Of a stretch of 32,000 nt of DNA, positions 1,433 to 7,603 are shown piece by piece (positions within the stretch are counted from its first letter, which is position 1; each line of letters begins with the position of its first letter). The notes under the pieces were generated by a model. The model worked only from the letters and a program-made list of their open reading frames with translations, was not told where the DNA came from and did not search any database. Source of the DNA: Promethearchaeota archaeon. Lineage in GTDB: Archaea; Asgardarchaeota; Lokiarchaeia; Sigyniarchaeales; Promethearchaeaceae. The stretch covers positions 120,001 to 152,000 of the forward strand of contig JAFGBS010000008.1 in NCBI GenBank assembly GCA_016933055.1, given 5' to 3'. The position numbers and the translations under genes were made by a program.

Positions 1433-2452
1433 ATGACTGAACAAAACCATCAAAATCGTATAGAACCATACCATAAATATTCATACCCTGAATATTTAAA
1501 GATCTTAATAGTGCTCGCTTTTTTGACGACAGCCGGCATATTTTTATTGATGTTTGGGTTAAATGAGGCATTCTTCATTCCCGAACCGGTTGCTGTATTC
1601 AAGATATTCAAAATTATCACATTCTTGGGTGATGAACTTTTTTTCATCATTGCTTTTAGCTTTATTTATTTTGCTTTTGACAAGCGGTACTCACGAAGGT
1701 TAATAATACCATTTTTACTCAGTACTCATCTCAATACCGTACTAAAAGTATTTTTTAAGGATCCTCGTCCTCCCGCAAATGAATATTTTGGTGAACCAAT
1801 TGGTACAGGATACGGACTTCCCAGCGGTCACACCCAGAGTTCTGTGGGCTTCTATGGCTTCACATTTCATCAGTTTAAAGGACACGAGAAAAAGAGTGGG
1901 ATAGTTGTCCGGATTATCAGTTTTCTTTTATTAATCTTGGTTCCCGTTTCTAGACTTATTATAGGTGCTCATGATGTCCAAGATGTTCTTTTCGGTTATT
2001 TGTTCGGGTATGCGGTGTTATTGATTTATTTCATGCTGGAACCTTGGTTATTATCCTTAAAACCGAAATTGCCTATGATTGTAAAAATACTGATTGGAGT
2101 TGTTGCAAGCTTAGGTTTATGGATTGGAAGTATTTTGCTTTTTCCCGAAGATGCATATGAATTCGGTTTGACTTGTGGAGCGTTATTGGCGTTTTCCATA
2201 TGTTTTCCATTGGAGGAAAAATATGTGCGATATGATCCTAGAAAAATGGCGACTTGGCAAAGAATAGTCTATGGGATAGTAGGATCGATAATAACGGTTG
2301 GATTATATTTTGGGTTAAGTTTGCTTTTCGATATGATCCCGTTTGCAGAATGGGACTATATTTTCAGATTGATTAAATATCTTCTACTCGGTGCAATTGT
2401 GGCAGTACTAGTTCCATATATTTTTACTTTGATTACCAAACAAAAAGAGTAA
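1433..2452 (+). CDS. PAP2-family integral membrane phosphatase with extra C-terminal TM helices
   Basis: All three PAP2 motifs: KVFFKDPRP (KX6RP), PSGH, SRLIIGAHDVQD (SRX5HX3D); strongly hydrophobic. Confidence 0.9.
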   Translation: MTEQNHQNRIEPYHKYSYPEYLKILIVLAFLTTAGIFLLMFGLNEAFFIPEPVAVFKIFKIITFLGDELFFIIAFSFIYFAFDKRYSRRLIIPFLLSTHLNTVLKVFFKDPRPPANEYFGEPIGTGYGLPSGHTQSSVGFYGFTFHQFKGHEKKSGIVVRIISFLLLILVPVSRLIIGAHDVQDVLFGYLFGYAVLLIYFMLEPWLLSLKPKLPMIVKILIGVVASLGLWIGSILLFPEDAYEFGLTCGALLAFSICFPLEEKYVRYDPRKMATWQRIVYGIVGSIITVGLYFGLSLLFDMIPFAEWDYIFRLIKYLLLGAIVAVLVPYIFTLITKQKE

Positions 2453-2815
2453 TTATTTTTCTTTCATTTTTTTTTGGAATCTTTTATTTGCCTGATCCAT
2501 AATCCTTTCAAATTCAAGATAGGTTTCCAGTAAATTTTTACCAGCTTCAGTCAGGATGGTTTTTCCACCTCCTCCTTTCCCACCCGCAGAAGCTTCCACA
2601 GGGCTTAATCCTCCAATATTTTGTTTAATCTTTTGAAGCATCCCCCACGCTTTCCGATAGGATATCTTTTTTGGAAGCAATTCGGTAGCTTTCACCAAAC
2701 TATGAGTTTCATCAATTGCTTTTAATAAATTTGCTCCCCCTTTCCCAATAACGTAATCCCCTTTTGAGTTAGATAACCATAACTTAAAACTAGGTTGGAG
2801 TGTGAGTTCGAACAT
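2453..2815 (-). CDS. modE: ModE-family winged-helix regulator (DNA-binding domain only, no TOBE/Mop domain)
   Basis: KLWL...VIGKGGANLLKAIDETHSL..A....ISYRKAWGMLQKI...VEASAGGKGGGGKTILTEAGKNLLETY matches the ModE N-terminal pattern; only 120 aa. Confidence 0.85.
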   Translation of the reverse strand: MFELTLQPSFKLWLSNSKGDYVIGKGGANLLKAIDETHSLVKATELLPKKISYRKAWGMLQKIKQNIGGLSPVEASAGGKGGGGKTILTEAGKNLLETYLEFERIMDQANKRFQKKMKEK

Positions 2816-2928: not shown

Positions 2929-3954
2929 ATGGCTAAATCAAAAAGTGGAATCATGATTGCCGTAGTTGTAGGCATTTTAGTAGTTGCTGCGGGTGTATTG
3001 GTTCCTTTATACTACTTTGTTTGGAGACCGCAGAGTCCCAATTATCCCACATGGGATTTGAAATTTTATGGAGATTCCGTTGATCAGAGTAAAAATATTA
3101 CCTACCAAGAAATTCAAGAGGAATTCAGCGCAACAGAATATTCATTTAATCATACCAGATGGTGGGATCCTGACGGTTATTTGTCCGAAATTAGGAATTA
3201 TACGGGAATTCCCCTATGGGACATTATTGAATATTCTGAAGTGGATTATGGTCATGCTAATGCATTACGTTTTGTAGCACTTGATGGGTTTAAGAGCCCT
3301 GCATTATCATTAGATGTAGTAGAAAATGACAAATCTCTTATTATAGTTTGTATAGCGGAAGAGGGTGTAATTTTGACGGGTCCTGAAGAAGATGGTGAAG
3401 GTTATTTAATGAGTGCAGTAAACTACTCGATTGATGAAACCAAAAAGAGTTCTCATTTTAATATGAAGAATTTGATTGGAGTAGAATTTTTGGTGGATTG
3501 GGATCTGACTCTTTTCGGAGAAACTTATGTCGAAACAAATATAACAATCTCATACAATGATTTCGTGAATTCAGCCGAATTGGATAGACACAACGTTTTA
3601 TTAAATTATACTAAACTGTGGGACAATGGGACTATTCGATCAAGTGAGTTAGTTAATGTGACCGGAGTTACGCTTTGGAGTATAATTCAGTATACGGAAG
3701 TAAATTACACAACTGCCTCAGGGGTTAAATTCATTGCGAATGATGAATGGTCTACTTGGACTGTCTCCTTAGATTGGGTTGAAGAAAATGCATCTAAAGT
3801 GTTGATTGTTTATGAAGAAAATGGGCAACTTTTAGACCACGAATCAGATGGATACCTGTACTCCATGGTAGATTATAGTTTAACAGAAGGAACATCAAGC
3901 AGCCAATTCAAAGCAAAATTTTTAATGGGAATAGAATTTACATTATTTTTGTGA
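2929..3954 (+). CDS. Membrane-anchored extracytoplasmic protein with two tandem sulfite-oxidase-family molybdopterin-binding-like domains
   Basis: N-terminal basic plus hydrophobic anchor. Internal duplication: WDL..G, TG..LW.II.Y.EV.Y..A...F.A.D, SLD.VE, G.L.S.V.YS, SS.F..K.L.G.EF occur in both halves. Ten N-X-S/T sequons. Confidence 0.7.
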   Translation: MAKSKSGIMIAVVVGILVVAAGVLVPLYYFVWRPQSPNYPTWDLKFYGDSVDQSKNITYQEIQEEFSATEYSFNHTRWWDPDGYLSEIRNYTGIPLWDIIEYSEVDYGHANALRFVALDGFKSPALSLDVVENDKSLIIVCIAEEGVILTGPEEDGEGYLMSAVNYSIDETKKSSHFNMKNLIGVEFLVDWDLTLFGETYVETNITISYNDFVNSAELDRHNVLLNYTKLWDNGTIRSSELVNVTGVTLWSIIQYTEVNYTTASGVKFIANDEWSTWTVSLDWVEENASKVLIVYEENGQLLDHESDGYLYSMVDYSLTEGTSSSQFKAKFLMGIEFTLFL

Positions 3955-3987
3955 TTCATTATTAGAAAAAACTACTGGAGAATATGA

Positions 3988-4539
3988 ATGGAAAGACATA
4001 GAACAAGAAGAATCGCATTTATTACCCTTTTTTTTCTTTTAATTATGGCTTTTCCCATACCTCTAATTGTTTTTAACCTAAGAAACCGGAATCCGGAATT
4101 ATATTCGATACGGATTGAGGGAAATGTATCTGAAGTCTTAACTTACACTTATGAGGATATTGTTGATGGATTATTTGGAGTGGTTGAAAAACAAGAATTT
4201 GTGTATTTAAATCAACCCCCGTACAATACGAGATATAACGTCATCTATACTGGTGTCAGTGTATGGTCTTTATTAACTCATAAATCGGTAATTAACTCCA
4301 ATGCTACTGAAATCTTTTTTCGTTCTTATGATGCGTATTACACTGACACATTACTTCTCGAAAAAGTTGAAAATAATCCCACTCTCGTGATAATAGCCTT
4401 TAAGAAAGACAATAAACCTTTAAAATATAATAGTGATGATGGTGGACCCCTGCGTGCAATCGTGAACTTAAGTGTAACAGAACCGGATTATTGCAGTAAA
4501 TATTGGGCTAAATATGTAAATACCATCGTTGTAGTTTGA
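3988..4539 (+). CDS. Membrane-anchored protein with one sulfite-oxidase-family molybdopterin-binding-like domain
   Basis: N-terminal TM helix, then YTGVSVWSLL, FRSYDAYY, IIAFKKDNKPL...GGPLRAIV, WAKYVNTIVV, following the Oxidored_molyb pattern. Confidence 0.75.
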   Translation: MERHRTRRIAFITLFFLLIMAFPIPLIVFNLRNRNPELYSIRIEGNVSEVLTYTYEDIVDGLFGVVEKQEFVYLNQPPYNTRYNVIYTGVSVWSLLTHKSVINSNATEIFFRSYDAYYTDTLLLEKVENNPTLVIIAFKKDNKPLKYNSDDGGPLRAIVNLSVTEPDYCSKYWAKYVNTIVVV

Positions 4540-4560
4540 TAATTCAACTGATTGATTACT

Positions 4561-5205
4561 ATGACAAGAAGAAGCCAAGATGAATTAGTAGATGAGGGAA
4601 TTACAGTTCCTGAGGGTTATATGGATACTCGAGAATATATCAAGAAAAATACGATATTGGGATTATTAACAGTTCGAGATCTGCTATATGCATCTGTTTT
4701 GGGCATTATGGGTGGTTTTATTTCATCATTGGTGCCTTTCAGTTTAATCATCAAAGCAATATATCCATTTTGGGGGGGTTCTCAACTAATGTCTGGCCAT
4801 CATATGATATGGATGAGTATCGCATATGGAACTACCAAGAAGAAATCGAGTTTACTTATCACTGCTTTATTAAAAGGAGTTATTGAATTCCTTTTAGGCG
4901 ATCGTTTGGGAGCTTTCATCATACTCATGAATATTTTTGAAGGGTTGTCTCTTATGGTGGGTTTTATCATTATTGAGCAATTAGGTGAGTATAAAACCAA
5001 CTTTGGCTGGTCTATTGCGGGAGGAATAGGGAATGTTACGCAAGCACCGATTTTCTGGTGGATTGCTGGTCGCTTTGGTATCTTACATTGGTCGTTAGCT
5101 GCTATTGCTTTTACTTTTGCTTTTTTGTCAGGATGTTTTATTACGGGTTTCCTAGGACGTCAAATCACAATTTCGATTAAGCGATCAATGGGAGAGATAC
5201 CATGA
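4561..5205 (+). CDS. ECF transporter S component (YkoE/ABC_cobalt-like)
   Basis: About six TM helices; RDLLYASVLGIMGG and GVIEFLLG patterns; ATGA overlap with the ECF ATPase. ORF track starts at TTG 4552; ATG 4561 preferred. Confidence 0.75.
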   Translation: MTRRSQDELVDEGITVPEGYMDTREYIKKNTILGLLTVRDLLYASVLGIMGGFISSLVPFSLIIKAIYPFWGGSQLMSGHHMIWMSIAYGTTKKKSSLLITALLKGVIEFLLGDRLGAFIILMNIFEGLSLMVGFIIIEQLGEYKTNFGWSIAGGIGNVTQAPIFWWIAGRFGILHWSLAAIAFTFAFLSGCFITGFLGRQITISIKRSMGEIP

Positions 5206-6725
5206 CGAGTATTGTGGAGTTCATTGAATTTTCCTTTCGATATCCTCATACAGAGCAAGATATTATACAAAACGCTTCTTTCAAAATTGAAAAGGGAACT
5301 TTAACTCTATTATATGGACTATCGGGTTCGGGAAAAAGTACTCTTTGTTACGCAATGACCGGGCTTATCCCATGGTCGGTTCGGGGATTTATTAAAGGCG
5401 ATGTAAAAATTCTTGGTAAAAATACCAAAGAAACAAAACCCAACCAATTTGCTGGGGATATCGGATATTTAATGCAGAATCCTGATAGCCAATTTGCCAC
5501 CTTAAATGTGCGTGATGAACTAATTTTTGCTGCAGAGAACATTCAAATTGATAAATTAGAAATCGAAAAGAGATTTCAAAGAATTGTCGAATTACTTGAT
5601 TTACGTACATATTTGGACCGTAATGTCACACAATTAAGTAGTGGGGAAAAACAACGAGTAGTTTTAGGCTCTATTCTTATGATGGAACCTGCTCTTCTTA
5701 TATTAGATGAACCCCTTTCCTTTTTAGACTATCCTAATCGTTTAAAATTATTGGGATTTTTACGAAAAGTACTTTCAAAATATAGTGATCTCTCTGTCAT
5801 AATTGCGGAACATCGGATTAATGATATTATCCCATTAGCTACCAATTTTTTAGAAATTAAAGATGGTTTGATCACACCTGTTCCTTTTCCAGAAGTAAAA
5901 TCTCAAAAATTTATTCCTAATTCATCCATAGCATTTTCCTATAAAGATTTAATTCATCATTATGGATTTCAAGAAGACAGCTCGGATTATCCCGAGCAAC
6001 AAATACCTGATATTAGTTTCAAGCAAGTGTCCTTTAATTATACACAATATTATGGGAAATTTACTCAAAATAGCGTCACTATTTTACATAAGATTTCATT
6101 TAAAGCCTTTCCTGGAGAAATTATAGCCATAATTGGTCCAAACGGAATCGGAAAAACTACTTTATTATATCTGATTGCGGGTATTTTACAAACCTCCGAT
6201 GGGGAAATATTTTTCAAAGGGCAAGATATTGCCAAATTACATTATGGTAAATATTCTAGAAATATCGGACTAATTTTTCAAAATCCCGAGTCCCAACTCT
6301 TAAAGAATACCATAAAAAAGGAGATTGAATTTGGTCCAAAAAACTTCGGAATTAGGATTGAAGAAGATCAAATTCAACGATATTTAGAGTTTATTTTTTC
6401 CACATCACAAGCTAATTTTAAAGCTCTATTTGAACTCCATCCCTTTAATTTATCCTGGGGTGAAAAACGCCGTTTAAATCTTGCATCTTTATTTGCATAC
6501 TCTCCCTCAATTTATCTATTTGATGAACCCTATACTGGCCAAGACTATATTGTGAGAACCAAATTACTCAAAATCATTAAATCTATCTCTGAAAACTCAG
6601 GTTTAACTATAATTTCGAGCCATGATGAGGAAATCTTGCAATCGTGTAGTAGAGTTTTCTTATTAGATGAATCGGGTTTCACAAATTTTAAGAAAAATCA
6701 AAAGCTTGGAAGTGAGCAACCATAA
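5202..6725 (+). CDS. ECF transporter ATPase with two fused ABC cassettes (A-A')
   Basis: Walker A GLSGSGKS and GPNGIGKT; Q-loops MQNPDSQ and FQNPESQ; signatures LSSGEKQR and LSWGEKRR; Walker B LILDEP and YLFDEP; H-loops AEHR and SSHD. Confidence 0.93.
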   Translation: MTSIVEFIEFSFRYPHTEQDIIQNASFKIEKGTLTLLYGLSGSGKSTLCYAMTGLIPWSVRGFIKGDVKILGKNTKETKPNQFAGDIGYLMQNPDSQFATLNVRDELIFAAENIQIDKLEIEKRFQRIVELLDLRTYLDRNVTQLSSGEKQRVVLGSILMMEPALLILDEPLSFLDYPNRLKLLGFLRKVLSKYSDLSVIIAEHRINDIIPLATNFLEIKDGLITPVPFPEVKSQKFIPNSSIAFSYKDLIHHYGFQEDSSDYPEQQIPDISFKQVSFNYTQYYGKFTQNSVTILHKISFKAFPGEIIAIIGPNGIGKTTLLYLIAGILQTSDGEIFFKGQDIAKLHYGKYSRNIGLIFQNPESQLLKNTIKKEIEFGPKNFGIRIEEDQIQRYLEFIFSTSQANFKALFELHPFNLSWGEKRRLNLASLFAYSPSIYLFDEPYTGQDYIVRTKLLKIIKSISENSGLTIISSHDEEILQSCSRVFLLDESGFTNFKKNQKLGSEQP

Positions 6726-7603
6726 AGAATCGTAAGGAACAGCAAATTGTAGATTATGTATTTAATTTTAAACCGGGAACATCATTGTTTCATAAACTTC
6801 ATCCTGTTCCCAAAATAGTTTTTATCGTGCTATTGACCTATATTGTACTTGTTCAAACGAGTTTATTGGTATTAGCAGGATTGATGATCTTCGTTTTTGG
6901 TCTTTCTCTTAGTGTTGGAATCACCATACCAGCGTTGTTCTCCCGCTTGAAATGGATTTTAATGATCATAATTTTTACTGTAGTGATCAATATTTTCTTT
7001 AATGCGATAGAAGGAGAACCAGAAATTCTATTTTATTTAATCCCCAGAGAACCTATCGAAGATTCGTTATTGCCAATTCGCCGTTTAGCCGTATACTACG
7101 CATTTCGTATTGCATTCTGGATTTTAATACTTAGTAATTGTGGATTGATTTTTTTACATACTACATCTCCTAAAGATGTGGTGTATGGATTACGTTGCTT
7201 GGGTGCACCATATAAGTTCGCCTATGCGCTTATGATTGGAATGCGTTATATTCCTCTTATTCAAGATAGTACTACGTCTGTGGTGATAGCACAAAAAGCA
7301 CGTGGATTAGAAGGAAGCAATGCTAGAGGACTTAAACGAGTATGGGAATTGGTCCGAGATCGGTTGACAACTTCCCTCATCCTAATATTTAAACAAATAA
7401 AAATCACTGCAAAATCGCTTGAACTTAGAGGTTTTGGTAAATATAGGGGACGTACCGATTTGTATAAAATTCCTTGGCAATTTAGAGATTTTTTATTTTT
7501 ATCAATATTTCTTGCATTTATACTATTTGCTTCATTATATCGTTTCAGTGTATTGTGGTTTATACCCCCCCTTCCTTCGATTTACTCGATGTTCTGGGTA
7601 TGA
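6722..7603 (+). CDS. ecfT: ECF transporter T component
   Basis: FKPGTSLFHKLHP N-terminal motif, GMRYIPLI, coupling Arg motifs AQKARG and SLELRG. Frame is open from 6716; ORF track uses TTG 6785, start proposed at ATA 6722 (uncertain). Confidence 0.88.
   Translation: MKNRKEQQIVDYVFNFKPGTSLFHKLHPVPKIVFIVLLTYIVLVQTSLLVLAGLMIFVFGLSLSVGITIPALFSRLKWILMIIIFTVVINIFFNAIEGEPEILFYLIPREPIEDSLLPIRRLAVYYAFRIAFWILILSNCGLIFLHTTSPKDVVYGLRCLGAPYKFAYALMIGMRYIPLIQDSTTSVVIAQKARGLEGSNARGLKRVWELVRDRLTTSLILIFKQIKITAKSLELRGFGKYRGRTDLYKIPWQFRDFLFLSIFLAFILFASLYRFSVLWFIPPLPSIYSMFWV

Follow-up and report, generated by a model that had tools for sequence, protein, structure and literature searches.

Cys-less sulfite-oxidase-fold proteins as putative receptors of an energy-coupling factor importer for a tungsten or molybdenum pterin cofactor in Asgard archaea

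The window analysed here, a stretch of 32,000 nucleotides from a Promethearchaeota archaeon (contig JAFGBS010000008.1 of assembly GCA_016933055.1; G000:C15:120001-152000 in our numbering, where G000 is the source genome of 3.76 Mb, 91% complete), harbors one compact operon, flanked by a PAP2 phosphatase gene on one side and by genes for ribosomal proteins on the other. The first two genes encode proteins that we call SOa and SOb. SOa (341 aa, 2929-3954, forward strand), as delineated from the list of open reading frames (ORFs), BLASTP and Pfam, comprises an N-terminal membrane anchor and two domains of the sulfite oxidase (SUOX) fold (approximately nt 3037-3492 and nt 3493-3954); SOb (183 aa, 3988-4539, forward strand), as judged by PF00174 and a structural model, comprises an N-terminal anchor and one such domain, and all three domains lack the cysteine that serves as Mo ligand in SUOX enzymes. 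Downstream on the same strand lie the genes of a transporter of the energy-coupling factor (ECF) type: a YkoE-type S component (EcfS, 217 aa, 4552-5205; PF09819, 38.1 bits), a fused EcfA-EcfA' ATPase with two ABC_tran domains (EcfAA', 507 aa, 5202-6725; TIGR04521, 283.7 bits, and TIGR04520, 280.9 bits) and an EcfT component (272 aa, 6785-7603; PF02361 CbiQ, 74 bits, and TIGR02454, 68.4 bits). With gaps of 33, 12, -4 and 59 nt between consecutive genes from SOa to EcfT, and with an S component, two A domains and a T component in one operon, this is a group I (dedicated) ECF set. Since the genome encodes many enzymes that require the tungsten or molybdenum pterin cofactor (Wco/Moco) and no genes for its synthesis, we surmise that SOa and SOb capture the cofactor for the importer, and are probably non-catalytic receptors of an ECF system that takes up the finished W/Mo-pterin.

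Three Cys-less domains of the sulfite oxidase fold

Comparison of the two halves of SOa by BLASTP yielded 36% identity over 151 aa (E 4e-29), and each half also matched SOb (E 5e-11 and 3e-13), in agreement with the initial annotation of this DNA, which had read the 341-aa protein as a tandem duplication and the 183-aa protein as a third copy. Against PF00174 (cut-off 24 bits), SOb scored 47.9 bits and the second SOa domain 29.6 bits; the first SOa domain had no Pfam match of its own and is tied to the SUOX family through its paralogs only. For SOa, a search of 1.84 billion representatives retrieved 41 relatives. SOb was modelled with AlphaFold2 (pLDDT 94.6), giving an N-terminal helix (residues 2-33) followed by a beta-rich domain, with residues 36-183 resembling SorA at a Z score of 16.6 (root-mean-square deviation 2.4, 135 aa aligned), then SoxC (16.3), the pterin binder PruR (15.7), chicken sulfite oxidase (15.5) and YedY (12.9), vs. 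6.7 for the best unrelated chain. The sulfite oxidase fold that had been proposed is thus well supported by the model, and the N-terminal helices taken for anchors are present. The W/Y-x-G, D-G-Y and C-terminal aromatic motifs are common to the SOa/SOb family and the catalytic SUOX enzymes. As for the 10 and 3 N-X-S/T sequons counted earlier in SOa and SOb, both counts are correct, but enrichment holds in SOa only (10 vs. 3.0 expected, a number reached in 0 of 2000 shuffles), with the 3 sequons in SOb (1.8 expected) being not significant.

Each of the two proteins has a single Cys (C141 and C169), neither of them in the hairpin before the (Y/V)TG[IV] motif, as had been remarked initially, and 10 of 19 homologs from other genomes contain no Cys whatsoever. 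The late Cys in the 'DYC' stretch of SOb had been considered as a possible Mo ligand; this residue, however, is retained in close relatives only and is Asn in most homologs. In a sequence-based mapping, from HMMER alignments and from alignment of the family by MAFFT to canonical SUOX proteins of Asgard archaea (alignment A5), the Cys column is occupied by V72 in SOb, by Asn in both SOa domains and by Tyr or His in other homologs, with canonical SUOX proteins of the same phylum retaining the Cys ('IHCVTSW', 'LWCVDD', 'LQCVAG'). As a separate observation, a 347-aa protein of genome G077 (L050:5617-6660, forward strand) carries a canonical Cys-bearing PF00174 domain (131 bits) and a C-terminal DUF4079-like membrane domain, and looks, from these domains, like a one-piece membrane-anchored SUOX enzyme; similar ORFs are found in G141, G204 and G034.

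The route of export and the presence of redox partners are relevant to the function of these domains. TatC (PF00902) was found in none of five genomes, the source genome and a closed genome included, and SOa has no RR consensus, in line with the earlier statement that a clear twin-arginine translocation (Tat) motif is missing. Without TatC, SOa and SOb must fold outside the cell without cofactor. The N-termini of homologs in family f2 (for example L023:3364-3927 and L027:2817-3380) display a conserved M-E-[KTR]-R-N-F-Y motif before the anchor helix, which resembles a degenerate twin-arginine motif in its residues. Neither an MsrQ-like gene, likewise reported missing before, nor any other redox partner lies in the operon, the neighbours being the ModE-like gene and the ECF genes, and the only Ferric_reduct-like ORF of the genome is located on another contig (C2).

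These features bear on whether SOa and SOb could be MsrP-like SUOX enzymes whose Mo ligand is unusual, or apo-enzymes that receive their cofactor outside the cell via an ECF system working as exporter, for which flavin trafficking in Listeria is a model (PMC9973259). The PF00174 matches above cut-off, as well as the names given by the sources to relatives ('molybdopterin-dependent oxidoreductase' or 'DMSO/TMAO reductase YedYZ catalytic subunit'), would favor catalysis. However, the Cys position harbors no conserved residue and many members are devoid of any Cys; in addition, there is no Tat system, no redox partner in the operon and no Moco synthesis to supply an exporter, and the host genomes are unable to load a SUOX enzyme themselves because they lack MoaA, MoaC, MoaE and MoeA. 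We therefore deem this explanation very unlikely. ECF-driven export of cofactor from genomes that carry the cassette (the SUOX-fold and ECF genes) and no synthesis genes was rejected, as there is nothing there to export. The missing Cys, the absence of Tat and of Moco synthesis, and the fusion to EcfS described below lend support to the initial proposal that an enzyme fold has been reused as a non-catalytic cofactor receptor, and with the Mo-ligand Cys absent family-wide, its warning that an oxidoreductase annotation would mislead is justified.

SUOX-fold domains adjoining or fused to ECF components

Among 301 sampled Asgard genomes, we found homologs of SOb in 57 and of EcfS in 111. The order SUOX-fold gene, EcfS, EcfAA', EcfT is kept in 18 of 20 Asgard loci; the remaining two, both from family f29, are ordered EcfT, MobB, SUOX-fold gene and a PF09819 S component. 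In families f9, f14, f24 and f26, the EcfS matches are proteins of 350-390 aa, in which a linker and a seventh helix connect the S component (PF09819, 56-72 bits) to a C-terminal domain, about 120 aa long, that bears NYTG, DGY and W motifs. Comparison of these fused domains with the free ones by hhalign gave a probability of 97.8% (E 9e-13, 143 columns). In the model of one fused protein (pLDDT 85.6), six helices precede the seventh (residues 203-226) and a beta domain (residues 235-349); in structural comparison, the N-terminal portion corresponds to an ECF S component (5EDL, target-normalised TM-score 0.79) and the C-terminal portion to SorA, YedY, SoxC and PruR.

Beyond these Asgard families, the fusion is also seen in Bacillota and Thermoplasmata. 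The fused family comprises at least 525 proteins, which the sources name 'ECF transporter S component' or 'thiamin/HMP permease', with 285 relatives in species-representative genomes. Carriers include Syntrophomonas, Pelotomaculum, Syntrophaceticus, Dethiobacteria, Desulfosporosinus, Thermoplasmata and a closed 1.42-Mb archaeal chromosome; among cultured organisms, they include Thermovorax subterraneus DSM 21563, Anoxynatronum buryatiense and A. sibiricum. In the 80 fused loci that were kept, EcfAA' comes next wherever there is enough downstream sequence, with EcfT thereafter in most; a free SUOX-fold gene lies directly upstream of the fused gene in at least 10 of them and MobB downstream in 3. 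The order of SUOX-fold and ECF genes is conserved across three phyla.

The fold of PruR (Z 15.3-15.7) might suggest that the SUOX-fold proteins are pterin sensors that signal as PruR does, with the ECF genes being mere neighbours. Nevertheless, no DcpA-type or kinase partner is present, and a gene order so strictly conserved, together with fusion of the domain to the S component itself, argues against coincidental proximity; we regard a sensor role as highly improbable.

The gene neighborhoods point to Moco. In genomes G183 and G279 the cassette leads straight into moaC, which in G183 is followed on the same strand by moaA-moaE-moeA-moaB-moeA, and in f29 MobB lies inside the operon. Two further genes of G183, upstream of the SUOX-fold gene and on the same strand (L042:10632-13022, reverse strand), encode a 288-aa protein with a sub-threshold match to the heme-binding EB_dh domain and a 469-aa protein with a PKD domain, which may be additional surface components. 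Of 24 Bacillota loci, 14 contain the Moco/Wco riboswitch RF01055, which in 11 lies upstream of the cassette and shares its strand. Four of these 11 (L112, L129, L131 and L133) have it within 450 nt of the S gene. In L100, L104, L110 and L126 it heads operons that place metallophosphoesterases, TupA-like genes, SUOX-fold proteins or a SUOX protein with S-layer anchoring ahead of the S gene. No thiamine pyrophosphate riboswitch reached the gathering score in the 24 loci scanned. The riboswitch-led operon of Thermovorax subterraneus DSM 21563 (L100:3192-11486, forward strand) begins with a purple-acid-phosphatase-like protein and also encodes a 742-aa protein with SUOX-fold domains and three S-layer homology (SLH) repeats, a free SUOX-fold protein, a fused S component and EcfAA'T as one 799-aa ORF.

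In the window itself, a regulator of 120 aa with a ModE-N-terminal-type helix-turn-helix and no Mop domains is encoded divergently from the operon (2453-2815, reverse strand). It matches TIGR00637 ModE_repress with 60.3 bits (E 1.4e-16), which is under the 98.5-bit cut-off, and has a homolog of 46% identity at the same divergent position in genome G294 (L022). The 113-bp divergent promoter region between them (2816-2928) is A+T-rich with TATA-like TTTATA boxes, and these are overlapped by a 9-nt inverted repeat (2842-2850 and 2874-2882, TTATATAAA / TTTATACAA, 23 nt apart); an Rfam scan of the window, divergent promoter region included, matched no family. Beyond the regulator lies the gene of the PAP2-family phosphatase, a 339-aa membrane protein (1433-2452, forward strand) whose stop codon abuts the ModE-like gene. 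By analogy with the bacterial versions, which carry surface metallophosphoesterases, it is conceivable that this phosphatase is a partner of the operon; a homolog was not found by tblastn in the 20 other Asgard loci.

Cofactor demand, supply and cargo

The source genome encodes 9 AOR genes and 4 PF00384 proteins, and along with four relatives, one of them closed (4.4 Mb) and another 100% complete, it falls within a range of 6-12 AOR genes per genome. In these five genomes we found no MoaC, MoaE, MoeA_N or MoaA C-terminal domain, in searches that recovered the families in 11 of 14 control genomes. Over the 301 Asgard genomes, AOR was present in 295 and MoaC in 124. MoaC was present in 5 and absent in 106 of the genomes with EcfS, vs. 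present in 119 and absent in 71 of those without, so that EcfS and MoaC are almost mutually exclusive (odds ratio 0.028, p = 3e-26, Fisher test without correction for phylogeny). The relationship recurs within families, as evidenced by: 1) f2, with p = 7e-7; 2) f9, with p = 9e-11 and zero overlap; 3) f14 (17 vs. 2) and f24, both with zero overlap as well. Furthermore, the cassette state and the MoaC state are both seen within at least 7 genera. MoeA follows the same pattern, being found in 0 of 30 high-quality genomes with the cassette only, in 5 of 5 with both cassette and MoaC, and in 22 of 22 MoaC-positive controls. As a marker for the oxyanion-binding proteins ModA and WtpA, PF13531 proved not to be discriminating, as a generic substrate-binding protein of about 380 aa occurs in both groups; in the source genome its gene comes first in an ABC operon whose permease is of double length with two domains, which looks like an iron(III)-type importer.

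Late steps of cofactor handling appear to have been kept. All five cassette-only genomes examined for MobB have it, and a search for MobA in seven such genomes retrieved a full-length MobA-like protein of 96-110 bits in five (G128, G065, G264, G147 and G040), a weaker one of 63 bits in the source genome and no clear candidate in the closed genome G210; MobA was the best NCBIfam match of these proteins, all of which score under the 164-bit cut-off. MobA acts on metal-loaded molybdopterin. That MobA is kept while all steps up to metal insertion have been lost points to import of metal-loaded molybdopterin. The 279-aa MobA-like protein of the source genome (63 bits, with an insertion) is encoded on the same contig as the operon, about 18 kb past the end of the window (L190, G000:C15:168522-172025). 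Elsewhere in this genome (L166, G000:C22:70270-73614), a 194-aa MoaB-like gene (PF00994, 84 bits) and one of the ThiS/MoaD-like kind stand divergently to MobB (87.9 bits); the products may be relics of cofactor handling. Of the five genomes compared, only the source genome has a MoaB-like gene beside MobB; the four relatives have only PF00994 ORFs of 265-317 aa, which are probably CinA-like.

The analysis shows the SUOX fold and its lack of the Cys, an operon and a fusion that are conserved, a genomic distribution complementary to that of Moco biosynthesis, and an association with the riboswitch; from these we infer the following scheme of binding, cargo, hand-over and direction of transport. 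SOa and SOb would be exported unfolded by the Sec pathway and held at the membrane by the N-terminal helix, with N-glycosylation being probable for SOa at least. The three Cys-less pockets would capture the pterin cofactor of Mo/W enzymes shed by neighbouring or dead cells, the cargo most likely being metal-loaded molybdopterin (Wco/Moco), which would be handed to the YkoE-type S component and imported by EcfAA'T at the expense of ATP. Inside, MobB and the MobA-like protein may deliver the cofactor to its users, 9 enzymes of the AOR type and as many as 4 of the MopB type, and the ModE-like repressor (or the Moco riboswitch in Bacillota) would shut off the operon when cofactor is sufficient.

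We have weighed this proposal against import of tungstate or molybdate, in which the Cys-less SUOX domains would bind the metal oxyanion in the old oxyanion pocket. In accord with this alternative, a ModE-type regulator adjoins the operon; the regulon of the Moco riboswitch, here found at cassettes, classically holds mod and tup transporters; the cassette of G183 and G279 sits where other genomes carry a WtpA-like gene by the moa/moe genes; and two TupA-like genes precede the cassette in L126. On the other hand, free metal would be useless to cassette-only genomes because they lack MoaA, MoaC, MoaE and MoeA. Moreover, the riboswitch-led operon of L110 holds a TupA-like gene and two ORFs of TupB/TupC size (assigned by size only) alongside the cassette, and a WtpA-like gene coexists with the cassette in G270, implying that the two are not redundant. 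The type of S component binds an organic heterocycle (5EDL), and pterins are what the fold is known to bind (PMC11194511). Taken together, oxyanion import strikes us as unlikely.

The cargo might instead be another heterocycle, be it a non-Moco pterin as for PruR, a precursor of folate or methanopterin, or thiamine/hydroxymethylpyrimidine (HMP). PruR does bind neopterin- and monapterin-type pterins (PMC11194511), and the S component belongs to the YkoE family (PF09819) and is named 'thiamin/hydroxymethylpyrimidine permease' by the sources. ThiC, however, is present in 35 of 37 f2 genomes and absent in f9, f14, f24, f7 and f29, in each case whatever the cassette state, so its distribution tracks phylogeny and is independent of the cassette. 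The specific context is all Moco-related (moa/moe genes, MobB, ModE-like regulator and Moco riboswitch), with no genes for non-Moco pterins in any context seen, and the SOb model keeps a long beta-hairpin (residues 65-74 / 82-91) that is truncated in PruR. A cargo other than the Moco/Wco type seems to us about as doubtful as free metal.

Several observations weigh against uptake of finished cofactor by SOa/SOb and their importer. Of the 30 non-Asgard genomes with the cassette, 21 make Moco, indicating that the system is not solely a substitute for synthesis; in these carriers, it would supplement synthesis, by analogy with many vitamin importers. Neither MoaC nor MoeA is present in seven of the 30, six of which carry AOR. 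Family f7 (e.g. G003, G145 and G157) poses a different problem, since 26 of its 28 genomes lack MoaC and all have AOR, yet the family has no EcfS homolog, no PF09819 protein or SOb homolog was found in the 14 genomes tested, and MoeA is absent in the three tested; another route to the cofactor must therefore exist. In a similar vein, no MoaC, MoeA or cassette was found in G077 and G141, yet both encode a canonical Cys-bearing SUOX protein. Transporters of molybdate or tungstate, too, are typically under riboswitch control and adjacent to moa genes. A further concern is the lability of Moco, whose uptake by prokaryotes has, to our knowledge, no precedent. Finally, most of the genomes in the census are metagenome-assembled, the Fisher tests ignore phylogeny, and the MobA-like assignments sit below their cut-off.

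Individually, the parts of the system are already known: importers of the ECF type, and binding of a pterin by the SUOX fold. In the literature searched, which covered few subscription journals, we found no prokaryotic Moco/Wco importer, no paper on a Moco/ECF importer, no Moco auxotrophy of Asgard archaea, no link between the Moco riboswitch and ECF genes, and no description of the SUOX/ECF combination or of an outward-facing receptor fused to an S component. We are inclined to believe, with some reserve, that the operon belongs to an uptake system for a finished Mo/W pterin cofactor, the first such system recognisable in prokaryotes. If so, the missing Moco importer would be named, and at least 106 of the 301 Asgard genomes, along with some Bacillota and Thermoplasmata, would be Moco/Wco auxotrophs that use cofactor made by their neighbours, probably including the cultured Lokiarchaeia-type lineage. 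This would account for the existence of Asgard archaea that carry 6-12 tungsten AOR genes and no cofactor pathway, and would constitute a new, testable dependency on syntrophic partners that is relevant to Asgard cultivation. The names 'molybdopterin-dependent oxidoreductase' and 'thiamin/HMP permease', both systematic misannotations in that case, would also be corrected. According to the textbook rule, ECF transporters need no binding protein; the system would be an exception. The three cultured carriers (Thermovorax subterraneus DSM 21563, Anoxynatronum buryatiense and A. sibiricum) make it experimentally accessible.

Comparison with known systems

The catalytic SUOX enzymes (MsrP/YedY, 1xdq; SorA, 2blf; SoxC, 2xts; sulfite oxidase, 1sox) have in common with SOa and SOb the Moco-binding fold (Z 12.9-16.6), but differ in that the proteins described here have no Mo-ligand Cys, Tat export, dimerisation or heme partner, and reside in hosts without Moco synthesis. 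Among ECF systems, the metal importers CbiMNQO with CbiN and NikMNQO with NikK/NikL also have accessory components at the outer face. In contrast to the cassette, these importers have an S component of another family, a metal ion as cargo and accessory proteins of unrelated folds. The thiamine/HMP transporter YkoEDC of Bacillus subtilis, a group I ECF system (YkoE, 5EDL; PMC5037267), is similar in having a PF09819 S component with dedicated EcfAA'T genes in the same operon. Unlike the S components described here, to which one to three SUOX-fold domains adjoin or are fused, YkoE has no outward-facing binding protein; in addition, the distribution of the cassette follows Moco genes and not thiamine (ThiC).

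For the receptor domains, the relevant comparison is with PruR of Agrobacterium tumefaciens and other Proteobacteria, a periplasmic Cys-less SUOX-fold pterin binder with neopterin-bound crystal structures (PMC11194511; PDB 7kos, 7kou, 7kom, 7kp2 and 7rkb). PruR resembles SOb in being small, secreted, Cys-less and without enzymatic role, with Z scores of 15.3-15.7 over about 130 residues, and the family profile matches PruR 7kom at E 5e-4. The pterin contacts of A. tumefaciens PruR comprise the stacking residues Y104 and W160 and the hydrogen-bonding N102 (PMC11194511). Two nearly invariant residues of the family, D115 and Y117 in SOb, align with the N-x-Y contacts of PruR, and the conserved aromatic W173 in the last strand, which is W in the fused forms too, may correspond to W160, a match drawn from the alignment only. 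Nevertheless, PruR differs in several respects: 1) it has a Trp (PW motif) at the Cys position together with a truncated hairpin and cleft, whereas the SOa/SOb family has no PW motif and the hairpin of its free forms is long; 2) PruR controls the c-di-GMP enzyme DcpA, whereas EcfS, EcfAA' and EcfT lie downstream here; 3) the ligands of PruR are non-Moco pterins in a proteobacterial setting, whereas the gene context here is Moco-specific. As for the proposed cargo, Caenorhabditis elegans takes up dietary Moco (PMC9793310), and the Asgard system, if our proposal holds, would resemble it in gaining ready-made Moco from other organisms.

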